DNA of 64,000 bases from a virus. Lineage: Duplodnaviria > Caudoviricetes. Shown in pieces: positions 10,423 through 43,028 of this stretch. Where the stretch lies: positions 1,020-65,019 of IMG/VR virus record IMGVR_UViG_3300031414_000022; one strand, 5' to 3'. Positions within the stretch are counted from its first letter, which is position 1. Every line of letters starts with the position of its first letter. The position numbers and the translations under genes are program-made. A model generated the notes under the pieces. The model worked only from the letters and a program-made list of their open reading frames with translations. It did no database searches and was not told the origin of the DNA.

Positions 10423-10431
10423 CTGTAAATA
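10423..10431 (+). promoter_or_regulatory. CTGTAAAT(A) motif, putative phage promoter
   Basis: Intergenic, upstream of the ligase; same motif at 41241 and 42980. Confidence 0.4.
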
Positions 10432-39409: not shown

Positions 39410-41185
39410 ATGGCTCTGATTAAAAAGGAAGGCAATCGTCTTCATCGCGATCTCGGGATTGTAGTGAGCACCATCCGTCGCGTTAAAGATATGTATGTTG
39501 GTCTGAGTGCTGCCTCTGCTTATGCTTGGGGCAATGGTGAAATCCGTGAGTTTGCGCCTGGTGATTTCGTTAACTTCCCAAGTGTTAGCGCTGCAACCAT
39601 TCAGCGTCTGAGTGGCATGAAGTTCGCAGGCACGTTGGACAATGGACAGACTGTGTTTATGTCTGCTTCTAACGCTGTTCACATGGCTCTCCATGCGCAG
39701 CGTGCTGCCCTGCCTGTTGTTGATCGTCGTGACGTGCTTGAGGCTGCAACTGAATATGCAACCACCAGCTCAGAAGTTACAAGCAAGTTGCTGGTGGCCA
39801 GTGAATCGGCGGCGCGTACTTGGGCTACCTATCAGGGCCGTCGTCTTGCAATCGATGACGCCAACGATGAGTACGAACTCGAACTGACCAAAGGCGAGAA
39901 GTTCAGCCTCACGTATCTCAACCGTGATAGCTATGAACTCGTTACCCAGGAAGAGCCAAAGATTAAGTTTGTGGTGCGTGGTCATGTGCGCGTTGCTAAC
40001 ATCATCGGACAGTCTGAGTGGCCTAAAGCGTTTGGCTCAGTGGGTGCTAACCGTGAAGCAACGTTTGAGCCTGTAGGTGAAGTCAGTCGCAACGTCGCAC
40101 AGCCTATTCAGATCAAGAAAGGCACTCAGGTATACATGTTCCGCAAGCGTCACTATCTTGCACAGAACCTTGTTGTGCCTCTGGAGAAGATTGTCGGTCA
40201 AGCTGACTTGGACAAAATCCTCACTGCGGTTAAACCTCAGAGCAATCCACGCGCTATCGTCAAAGGCCGTGAAGTGGGCGTCAAGCTGCCCAAGCTGGAG
40301 AATGCTAAGCGTGCAAAAAGCGTTGCACCGCTCAAGGGTGCCAAGCAACTCAGTGTTGTGTACGGCGCATTTTTTGCTGTGAGTCCTGCAACTCCAAACC
40401 GCAGTCGTATTGTATTTGGCTCGTCGGCAGCACAGGTACAGGAACAGGCACGTCGTGCTATCAGCGCGATGACCAGCCCTGTTGACTACTTCCTGTTCCA
40501 GACTTCAAGCAACGATGAGCTGTTTGACCTGGCGCGTGATGGTCGTGTTGTGATTCGTGCTAGTGGCCTGCTTCGCTCTGCTTATCCTCGTGCGCAACAG
40601 GTTGGTATGCAGGTAGCTGGCGCTGATGCTTATCAAGCACCTGACTACGTTGAGCCTGCAACTGGCGCACCTGAACTCACTGTGCCTGCTATTGCAGAAA
40701 ACGAAGACAAGATCGTTGAAACGCTGGTACGTCTTATCTCCGAAGGCTTTTTCGTTACTGGCCTGCATCTGGCAGAACAACAGCCGGGCAATGCGATTCG
40801 CTTTGCAGCGCCTGTAATGTCAGATGAACTGTATGACCGTGTTGTCGCAGGCTCCCGCCGCATCGCTGCTTACTTGGTGCAACAGGGCGTTGATATGCGT
40901 GGCAAGGTTACTTCTGCTCGTGGTACCAAGACGGCTGAGATTCGTTTCAAGTTGCCTCAACCAACGCAGGAGCAGCGTGTGAGTATCGAGCGTCTGCTGG
41001 CAGAACAGCCTACACTCAACAGCCCTGCATACGAAACGATCAAGCCCAAGCAGCCAACTGTTGAAATCACCAACATCAACATTCACACTGGCATGGTTAC
41101 CGTGCGTGCGCAGCGTGGTCCAGAACTGTTCGGCAGCCCGTACGATGTGCTGTACAACAACGTATTGCGTAAATCAATGTTCTAA
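39410..41185 (+). CDS. large hypothetical protein with paralogous beta domain (putative head protein)
   Basis: RBS AGGA; TWATYQG...KGEKFSL...Y.LV...P.I.F segment matches the family domain. Confidence 0.55.
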   Translation: MALIKKEGNRLHRDLGIVVSTIRRVKDMYVGLSAASAYAWGNGEIREFAPGDFVNFPSVSAATIQRLSGMKFAGTLDNGQTVFMSASNAVHMALHAQRAALPVVDRRDVLEAATEYATTSSEVTSKLLVASESAARTWATYQGRRLAIDDANDEYELELTKGEKFSLTYLNRDSYELVTQEEPKIKFVVRGHVRVANIIGQSEWPKAFGSVGANREATFEPVGEVSRNVAQPIQIKKGTQVYMFRKRHYLAQNLVVPLEKIVGQADLDKILTAVKPQSNPRAIVKGREVGVKLPKLENAKRAKSVAPLKGAKQLSVVYGAFFAVSPATPNRSRIVFGSSAAQVQEQARRAISAMTSPVDYFLFQTSSNDELFDLARDGRVVIRASGLLRSAYPRAQQVGMQVAGADAYQAPDYVEPATGAPELTVPAIAENEDKIVETLVRLISEGFFVTGLHLAEQQPGNAIRFAAPVMSDELYDRVVAGSRRIAAYLVQQGVDMRGKVTSARGTKTAEIRFKLPQPTQEQRVSIERLLAEQPTLNSPAYETIKPKQPTVEITNINIHTGMVTVRAQRGPELFGSPYDVLYNNVLRKSMF

Positions 41186-41190
41186 CCAAG

Positions 41191-41231
41191 TGGGGCGGAA
41201 AATATATTGTTTTCTTGCCCCATTTTTGTTT
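41191..41231 (+). terminator. intrinsic terminator
   Basis: TGGGGCGGAAAA...TTTTCTTGCCCCA followed by TTTTTGTTT. Confidence 0.75.
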
Positions 41232-41240
41232 CAGATAAAT

Positions 41241-41249
41241 CTGTAAATG
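41241..41249 (+). promoter_or_regulatory. CTGTAAAT motif upstream of the non-coding structured region
   Basis: AATCTGTAAAT also occurs at 42977; lies just after a terminator. Confidence 0.45.
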
Positions 41250-41261
41250 TTAATTAGAAAC

Positions 41262-41870
41262 AAGATTACTTCGGAAGGTTCGCCTTACACCTTCCGTCCT
41301 GGTGGTGCTTGCGCAGCATGGTATTAGCCACACAGATTTCTCAACAGGTTTGACGTTGGTCTGTGAAAGGCGCTGTTCAAGTAAACGTCTTAAAAGTGAG
41401 TACCAGTAACAGCCTGTGGAATTGATCGGCCTCATGTGGACAAGTGTCTCCCAGCATTTGTTCGGTCGGTGCTCTAAAACTTGATACGGTTAGACCTGTC
41501 TCAGTGGGGAGACGGGAACTTTATCAGGGCCCTTTGTAAACTCCGGCAAGAGTTTGCATCGACTGCATCATAATCAATCGTTCACGGTGACAAGCGGAGT
41601 ACACATCGTAGGCACGGGCTAGTCCATCCTTCACTTTCATGCCTGGTGCCAAATGTACTTAATTAGTGGTTAACATCCGCAGCTGAGTATGCCGTTGATC
41701 AGAGTTGGGTAGCAGTTCCCTTCCGATGACAACACCTTACGGCAGGACTAAAGACAATGGCGAGACCTGACTCAGTTGGGAGACGGGCGCTAGTCGAGCG
41801 GGCAGTTGGAAAGACAACCTGGTGCGCATTCGGGCTTTCACCCTGGAGTGTGCATTGGGTTGACACCAAA
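41262..41870 (+). ncRNA. candidate large structured ncRNA (~600 nt), family unknown
   Basis: No credible ORF in a gene-dense genome; many G-U-containing helices, long-range pairs, a predicted pseudoknot and a duplicated 25-nt hairpin (see findings). Ends are approximate. Confidence 0.6.
41492..41787 (+). repeat. two 25-nt imperfect direct repeats (41492..41516 and 41763..41787)
   Basis: AGACCTG[T/A]CTCAGT[G/T]GGGAGACGGG, 23/25 identical; each folds into a hairpin. Confidence 0.9.
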
Positions 41871-41884
41871 CATGAGATAATACA

Positions 41885-42310
41885 ATGGCTATTGACTTAA
41901 ACAGCTTTGACCTTGACGACACCGCAACAGATGACGTTCGTGATCGCATCATTCGCCCAATCAGTGCAGTAGCCGTACTAATCGCCGACAACTTCGGAAC
42001 TGAGAGTCCGACAGTGTTGCAGCGTGATACCTTGCGTCGTTTGCTGTGGGCACGTAACCAACTGTGGTACTGCATGGGCAGACAGGAAGAATCTTCCCTG
42101 CTCGAAACAGATTGTCGTTCACTGTTTGACGTGCTGACCACAATCGATAGCACCACTGAGGCAAGCCTTAGCGTGACACAGGCCGTCAGTGAACTCGTTA
42201 TCAAACTGGACGCAGACCTTAAAGAGCGTGCTGATAAGTTTTTCGCATATCAGTATCTCGCAAAGGCGCGTAACCTGTTTTTGAAGAGTTTGGACAACGC
42301 CCATGCCTAG
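41885..42310 (+). CDS. hypothetical helical protein
   Basis: ATG after a GAG-type RBS; overlaps the next ORF. Confidence 0.55.
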   Translation: MAIDLNSFDLDDTATDDVRDRIIRPISAVAVLIADNFGTESPTVLQRDTLRRLLWARNQLWYCMGRQEESSLLETDCRSLFDVLTTIDSTTEASLSVTQAVSELVIKLDADLKERADKFFAYQYLAKARNLFLKSLDNAHA

Positions 42311-42515
42311 TCCTATAATGAAGTATTTCAAATTCGACCACCTGCCGGGTTTCTTGCAGGAAGTGTCGAAGCCTATCGGTGAGCTTGCACAACAGATGGA
42401 TGCAGCCTTGCCTGACGGTGCGGAGAAGTCTGCGGGTCTTCGCAAGTTACTTGAAGCGAAAGACTGTTTGGTACGTGCTGCCCTGGATAAAGCTGATGCA
42501 GAAAAATCAAAGTGA
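42303..42515 (+). CDS. Acb2/Tad1-hairpin-like small protein (putative nucleotide-signal sponge)
   Basis: ELA..MD..LPDG.EKS..L.KL.EA....RA pattern matches the helical hairpin of Acb2-like anti-defence proteins as I recall it. Confidence 0.55.
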   Translation: MPSPIMKYFKFDHLPGFLQEVSKPIGELAQQMDAALPDGAEKSAGLRKLLEAKDCLVRAALDKADAEKSK

Positions 42516-42956: not shown

Positions 42957-43028
42957 CGATTGGTTCTTTGACGATTAATCTGTAAATAAACTCTGTGGCA
43001 ATCGCCACAAAACAGTGACGGGAAATGT

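Follow-up and report, generated by a model that had tools for sequence, protein, structure and literature searches.

The longest gene-free gap in a jumbo-phage contig encodes a large structured non-coding RNA on the + strand. This RNA is conserved among related phages and is modular, with tandem homologous domains, and it constitutes a previously undescribed family in a clade of jumbo phages of Enterobacterales, within the broader kind of large ornate phage-borne non-coding RNAs. From the sequence we infer that it is expressed, with ends that place it at roughly 41256-41872 (about 615 nt) of the window, by which we mean the whole 64,000-nt stretch of DNA that was analyzed. The best explanation of the observations as a whole is that this new modular RNA acts in trans through multivalent protein binding, a reading to which we give somewhat short of an even chance.

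The gene-free gap and its relatives

The phage contig originates from a phyllosphere metagenome, and its genes are densely packed on the + strand. Positions 41247-41884 form the longest + strand stretch in the window without an ORF of at least 60 aa, the runner-up being 214 nt. The gap is flanked by a 591-aa ORF (39410-41185) on its 5′ side and a 141-aa ORF on its 3′ side. The features that border the RNA are:

41188-41231, + strand: intrinsic terminator of the 591-aa gene, a hairpin (41188-41225) with a U-run; fold -19.2 kcal/mol, z -4.45
41237-41255, + strand: promoter-like 19-mer AAATCTGTAAATGTTAATT, nearly invariant in 11 homologues
41885-42310 and 42303-42515, + strand: downstream ORFs of 141 aa and 70 aa (ORF list), starting 13 nt past the RNA

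An earlier note on this DNA, made from its letters alone, had described a long ORF-free gap, a strong terminator before it and a CTGTAAAT motif after the terminator, all of which are borne out; the terminator hairpin is also kept in pEa_SNUABM_5 and Yoloswag. The gene 5′ of the gap encodes a protein with a KMPT-N domain (residues 137-199) as its sole Pfam domain and a match to phrog_32352. Its 30 database homologues, with identities of 42-100%, are restricted to the phage clade studied here. The AlphaFold2 model of the protein has a pLDDT of 80; a PDB sequence search, Foldseek on the model and an Atlas search returned no match, and VIA-align likened the C-terminal ~60 residues to an SH3/KOW/Tudor-like barrel at Z 6-6.8, which is within the noise range. 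On the 3′ side, the 141-aa and 70-aa ORFs are found in the close clade only and are substituted by other small ORFs elsewhere. Neither has a match in Pfam or PDB sequence searches, and the PHROGs that the two ORFs match, phrog_1761 and phrog_5120 for the 70-aa ORF, are of unknown function, such that the proposal of an Acb2/Tad1-like ‘immune-signal sponge’ at this position finds no sequence support.

Among Erwinia phages, blastn recovered the gap in pEa_SNUABM_5 at 76% identity; in Yoloswag only conserved blocks of it matched. Searched by tblastn, the 591-aa protein matched 57 records of jumbo phages of Erwinia, Dickeya and Yersinia, and a gene-free gap follows its gene in 18 of the 18 distinct relatives' loci examined. 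In the close clade, represented by pEa_SNUABM_5, Yoloswag and seven Logan/ENA contigs, the gap measures ~700-750 nt, and it is ~740-1800 nt long in Y3, JA13/JA29, L018, L036 and the Alexandravirus group, which comprises Alexandra, AD1, SNUABM_30 and the unclassified SNUABM_14, which is similar to them.

Domain architecture of the RNA

Two covariance models, R2 for the 5′ domain and R1 for the 3′ domain, describe the RNA. Its elements, all on the + strand, are:

41256-41323: 5′ leader, differing in length and sequence among homologues; contains a lineage-specific hairpin, CGGAAGG/CCUUCCG (41272-41296)
41324-41542: Domain 1 (5′ domain), pseudoknotted; model R2, 193 bits, with compensatory changes
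41326-41339 with 41357-41371: pseudoknot helix PKa of Domain 1
41345-41349 with 41412-41416: helix b of Domain 1, CAGGU/GCCUG
41352-41355 with 41386-41389: helix c of Domain 1, GACG/CGUC
41390-41411: conserved junction of Domain 1, UUAAAAGUGAGU..UAACA
41425-41429 with 41466-41470: helix d of Domain 1
41489-41519: hairpin copy 1, GUU / AGA bulge / CCUGUCUC-AGUGGG-GAGACGGG / AAC, nearly invariant in 11 sequences
41543-41583: inter-domain linker, poorly conserved and variable in length
41584-41872: Domain 2 (3′ domain); model R1, 254.6 bits
41585-41589 with 41604-41608: PKa-like helix of Domain 2, CGGUG/CAUCG
41594-41598 with 41676-41680: helix b of Domain 2, GCGGA/UCCGC
41599-41603 with 41654-41658: helix c of Domain 2, GUACA/UGUAC
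about 41687-41750: three-helix arm of Domain 2
41759-41791: hairpin copy 2, GGCG / AGA / CCUGACUC-AGUUGG-GAGACGGG / CGCU, whose flanking stem covaries in 5 of 5 pairs
41805-41818: GUUG/CAAC helix of Domain 2
41818-41859: 3′ hairpin of Domain 2

Helices PKa, b and c of Domain 1 are each kept by differing sequences in 10 of 10 homologues, and the domain is pseudoknotted because PKa crosses both b and c; helices e and f surround hairpin copy 1. Domain 2 presents its elements in the same order, with CGGUG/CAUCG and CAA followed by b and c. In Y3, JA29, fHe-Yen9-02 and the metagenome contig L023, models R2 and R1 match the same places, and the two domains are therefore homologous repeats. Relatives carry two to four such tandem domains per locus. 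A family signature, in which covarying helices b and c flank the junction UUAAnAGUGRnU..AAC and the 3′ strand of b is followed by (G)CAG, is found in both domains of the window and likewise in Y3, the JA phages and, with three units, the Alexandravirus group. Each domain, of ~220-290 nt, consists of PKa, helices b and c around the junction (CAA ... UUAAnAGUGRnU..UAACA), a variable arm, the bulged hairpin and a terminal hairpin.

The helices that the earlier note had read by eye can be judged against the homologues. CACAGA/TCTGTG and AGTACA/TGTACT covary, as does the 3′ hairpin TGCGCATTC/GAGTGTGCA including its CCTGG extension. The pairings CGGAAGG/CCTTCCG and GTAAACTC/GAGTTTGC stand as lineage-specific helices but are situated in length-variable regions; the former is present in the window's own fold, and the hairpin GUAAACUC/GAGUUUGC (41536-41557) begins in Domain 1 and lies mostly within the linker. 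The long-range pairings GGGAACT/AGTTCCC and TGTCTCCCA/TGGGAGACG had to be abandoned together with the TAGTCC/GGACTA pseudoknot, as their partners fall in non-conserved segments and are absent in homologues. A closing helix GGUG/CACC in R1 is doubtful: the close set shows no compensatory change for it, and the local CGGUG/CAUCG fits equally well or better. Separately, the invariant loop of the 3′ hairpin, CUUUCACC (41834-41842), is complementary to GGUG 41586-41589 at the start of the 3′ domain, and the same GGUG is complementary to the 3′-terminal CACC 41864-41867 and, locally, to CAUCG. These three competing partners may indicate a conformational switch or a tertiary contact.

Covariation, strand and coding potential

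From the MAFFT alignment A2 of 11 sequences, RNAalifold derived a consensus of 86 pairs, of which 30 are compensatory. For the 3′ domain (41584-41872), the unbiased MAFFT alignment A3 of 10 sequences has 96.1% of its cells paired, with changes on both sides in 26 of the 57 pairs of the revised structure; 0 of 500 shuffles reached this result, and slid controls were 31-53% paired. A larger alignment to R1 (17 rows) has 94.4% of cells paired and 44 of 61 pairs compensatory, as compared to 33-48% paired in slid controls. The 10-sequence test is the cleaner of the two, since the 17-row alignment was fitted to R1. Covariation in syntenic regions across many phages thus supports the earlier proposal of a large structured non-coding RNA of a new class.

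The strand of the RNA can be read from its mismatches, which had been described as mostly G-U. Among helix cells in homologues, G-U pairs number 134 versus 15 for A-C, and the RNA is therefore read from the + strand. All covariance-model hits are on the + strand, and the - strand folds ~20 kcal/mol worse. Folded as single sequences, the whole gap and the 3′ domain have ordinary energies (z -2.2 for the former, over 20 shuffles, and z -0.76 for the latter), and so the case for the RNA rests on covariation rather than on stability.

No conserved reading frame was found among the homologues. Stops interrupt the frame of a 47-aa ORF at 41757-41900 in 7 of 9 homologues, and frameshifts occur in homologues as well; differences within the frame show no third-position bias. 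In GenBank, pEa_SNUABM_5 has a 46-aa CDS over the 3′ part of the RNA (L001 4625-4765, pEaSNUABM5_00121) and fHe-Yen9-02 has three small CDSs over the RNA locus (L021 4361-4788, fHeYen902_001c-003c), while in L015 (5380-5895) and L016 (5337-5927) the conserved RNA is overlapped by small CDSs or by gene calls extended at the N terminus. Because the frames are not conserved, these calls over the RNA locus are probably spurious, and several small CDSs would merit correction of their annotation.

An invariant bulged hairpin

The only repeat detected is a 25-nt hairpin sequence, present in direct orientation at 41492-41516 and 41763-41787 (92% identical, 271 nt apart). Its consensus, an AGA bulge with CCUnUCUC-AGUKGG-GAGACGGG and a hexaloop given as CAGUKGG, occurs once per domain in the window. 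Both strands of the hairpin are invariant while neighbouring stems covary freely, including the 4-bp stem that flanks copy 1. Local compensatory changes in L012 and in copy 3 of Y3 indicate that the hairpin forms locally and not between copies. The CAGUUGG loop is only superficially D-arm-like, and the extended hairpin is backed by compensatory changes.

Distribution of the RNA family

Models R1 and R2, each of which includes the hairpin, match all close homologues. Beyond these, full-length copies of R1 were found in JA13 (E 1e-15), JA29 (two), Y3 (two and a fragment), fHe-Yen9-02, the metagenome contig L023 (three) and the IMG/VR jumbo phage L036 (three to four). The record of Yersinia phage fHe-Yen9-02 is linearized inside the RNA locus, with the domain match under its three small CDSs. 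The gaps of the Alexandravirus group are too diverged for R1 and R2. Aligned among themselves (four sequences), they yield 227 predicted pairs, of which 67 are compensatory, and their three units carry the b-c-junction signature with an altered bulged hairpin. The RNA is thereby present in at least five named genera (Rivsvirus, Yoloswagvirus, Alexandravirus, Sasquatchvirus and Salmondvirus), in addition to the Yersinia phage and to unclassified and metagenomic relatives.

Scanning with the hairpin pattern gave a similarly restricted picture. In IMG/VR only the clade of the present phage was returned, and 13 matches in JGI metagenomes comprised one family member (L023) and chance matches. In GTDB (185,579 bacterial and archaeal genomes), 18 matches in unrelated taxa are about the number we reckon for chance, and none belonged to the family by R1. 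As there is no GTDB counterpart beyond chance, mimicry of a host RNA by the hairpin is not supported.

Searches of known RNA families and the literature

Scanning the whole window against Rfam 15 (4227 models) with cmscan at the gathering score returned no match, and the 900-nt region at E≤10 returned a single chance snoRNA match. ARAGORN found no tRNA or tmRNA gene in the window and six homologous loci. ROOL, GOLLD, RNase P, tmRNA, introns and all other curated families are thereby excluded. Membership in ROOL or GOLLD, which the earlier note had entertained, is rejected, there being no covariance-model match at either threshold. The Rfam search likewise left no match for RNase P, tmRNA, 6S RNA, group I or II introns, T-box, riboswitches, OLE, raiA or small ribozymes. 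Full-text searches of papers about ornate RNAs, of reviews of jumbo phages and of work on PaBG, Yoloswag, Y3 and the JA phages turned up no description of the RNA.

Promoter-like motif and transcription unit

The CTGTAAAT motif is part of the conserved 19-mer at 41237-41255 and has the core ATCTGTAAATA, of which 11-14 copies occur in each of three related 260-kb genomes and 0 in the reversed control. In pEa_SNUABM_5, five copies of the motif lie 35-75 nt upstream of start codons, all in gene orientation, and the genes that they precede include those for a methyltransferase and a DNA adenine methylase. Copies in the window are located at 10423, 41241, 42980 and 60977, all on the + strand. The copy at 42977-42995, with a hairpin (GUGGCAAUCGCCAC) behind it, precedes small ORFs that lie before the PAAR and baseplate genes, and in L018 two promoter-like motifs lie 100 nt apart (4830 and 4931) ahead of the RNA. 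A sigma-70 fit was sought for the motif, with no match. A phage-encoded sigma factor has been reported for PaBG, presented as a related phage (PMC7412058), which offers a lead. Judging by these sequence features, a phage-specific promoter of the CTGTAAATA class probably drives transcription of the RNA together with the variable small ORFs downstream.

The 3′ side of the unit is less sharply bounded. In the window no terminator was found between the RNA and the downstream ORFs. With a start 13 nt past the RNA and no terminator intervening, the 141-aa and 70-aa ORFs are probably co-transcribed cargo. In both L018 and Y3, small hydrophobic ORFs of about 50 aa come after the RNA, where the window has its 141-aa and 70-aa ORFs, and a terminator is reached only beyond them. 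The uncalled hydrophobic ORFs of ~48-55 aa between RNA and terminator (L018 5621-5765 and 5794-5958, L008 5272-5418) probably encode small membrane peptides. Since the downstream ORFs differ between clades, the RNA is the conserved part of the unit. The notion that the RNA has its ‘own transcription unit’ is accordingly kept for its upstream side, where the promoter-like motif lies, but not for its downstream side. Three RNA runs, linked only by a species label shared with a DNA source, gave 0 reads.

Without a terminator before the downstream ORFs, the RNA might not be a free molecule but a leader at the 5′ end of an mRNA, acting in cis on the small ORFs, and perhaps on the baseplate operon, by processive antitermination (as in put or EAR), mRNA stabilization, or ligand or protein sensing. 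A position directly after the promoter-like motif, with all genes downstream on the same strand, would suit such a role, as would the terminators of Y3 and L018, which come only past the small ORFs 3′ of the RNA. We nonetheless consider a leader, the main rival of our proposal, unlikely. The RNA is conserved whereas the ORFs that it would control are non-homologous between clades, the conserved structure does not include the ribosome binding site of the 141-aa ORF, and the baseplate genes have a second promoter-like motif ahead of them at 42977. Additionally, a length of 600-1300 nt with two to four repeated domains is far above that of known antiterminator and leader RNAs.

Proposed function

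Our tentative proposal is that the RNA acts in trans as a multivalent RNA. Each invariant hairpin, with its junctions, would bind one copy of the same phage or host protein, and the RNA would thereby serve as an RNP scaffold, sponge or decoy, with the variable number of domains setting how many protein copies it can bind. Multivalent binding is suggested by three features, namely a domain number that varies from two to four, a hairpin that is invariant on both strands, and single-stranded junctions that are also invariant; on these grounds a scaffold, sponge or decoy is plausible, although we stop short of calling it probable. A more specific version is doubtful at present: the giant modular RNA might be a multivalent trap or assembly platform, for example a decoy that would neutralize a host RNA-binding factor with a role in defence or regulation during jumbo-phage infection, with a capacity given by its domain number. 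The roles floated in the earlier note, a packaged or scaffold RNA or an anti-defence decoy, are conjectural. Some specific partners and mimics were considered and dropped. A CsrA sponge would call for enrichment of GGA, which by hand count occurs about 11 times in ~620 nt versus about 10 expected, and CRISPR-repeat mimicry, T-box-like and tRNA-mimic ideas showed no enrichment or no model match.

The invariant hairpins could equally be RNA-RNA tertiary contacts. On this basis the RNA might have an RNA-only architecture resembling those of ROOL, GOLLD and OLE, in which its domains would build a large tertiary or quaternary structure, such as a pseudo-symmetric multi-domain body or a homo-oligomer, or else a ribozyme, and need no dedicated protein. 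GOLLD and ROOL, which form RNA-only homo-oligomers (PMC12286853), are large, ornate, pseudoknotted and phage-borne, as is the present RNA, whose invariant loops and junctions could serve as such contacts. However, a domain number that varies from two to four, with variable linkers, contrasts with one fixed architecture, no Rfam ribozyme or ornate RNA resembles it, and no self-complementary kissing loop was seen by eye, so that we regard this explanation as improbable. An element at the DNA level (a replication origin, a pac site or an array of protein-binding sites) or small protein genes missed by annotation could be suspected from the repeated 25-nt motif and the GenBank CDSs in pEa_SNUABM_5 and fHe-Yen9-02, but compensatory pairing and a G-U excess explicable only by a + strand RNA, a broken 47-aa frame with no codon-position bias, and 0 tandem repeats by Tandem Repeats Finder make either very unlikely indeed.

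Significance and comparison with known systems

To our knowledge, very few classes of large structured non-coding RNA (over 500 nt) are known in bacteria and phages. GOLLD, ROOL and OLE have each since become a subject of structural and functional study. The phage RNA family is notable for its strong covariation, its presence in at least five genera of cultured jumbo phages and an unusual modularity in which the number of domains varies. As hosts and phages are in culture (Erwinia amylovora and Dickeya solani), its expression, partners, structure and knock-out phenotype are directly testable.

Several known systems share part of this design. Much like the processive antitermination RNAs put (of HK022) and EAR, the RNA lies just downstream of a promoter, here a promoter-like motif, at the head of a long co-directional set of genes, but it is ten times larger, multi-domain and without Rfam similarity. 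CsrB/RsmB RNAs also bear repeated hairpin-borne recognition elements on one long RNA, in a copy number that varies among relatives. In the phage RNA, however, the repeat is a structured domain of 220-290 nt rather than a short GGA loop, GGA is not enriched by hand count, and the partner protein is putative.

Type III antitoxins and pseudo-ToxI are comparable in their setting, as tandem pseudoknotted RNA repeats in phages of related hosts. In Pectobacterium phages, such repeats, of changeable copy number, reportedly act by protein sequestration (Blower and colleagues, 2012). ToxI units are near-identical and ~36 nt long, whereas those of the phage RNA are diverged and ~250 nt long. Near-identical tandem repeats of 34-45 nt in the manner of ToxI were discarded as a description of the locus, with 0 rows from Tandem Repeats Finder and only the 25-nt hairpin repeat. 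By Pfam, no endoribonuclease gene lies beside the RNA, and the general Pfam search applied to neighbouring ORFs gave no ToxN-type match. In kind the RNA resembles GOLLD and ROOL, which are often borne by phages or prophages: like them, it is a phage-carried non-coding RNA of at least 600 nt with many covarying helices and pseudoknots. The phage RNA differs in having no match to their Rfam models and in occurring in jumbo phages of Enterobacterales, not beside tRNA genes, and it is built of two to four tandem homologous domains where theirs is one fixed fold.
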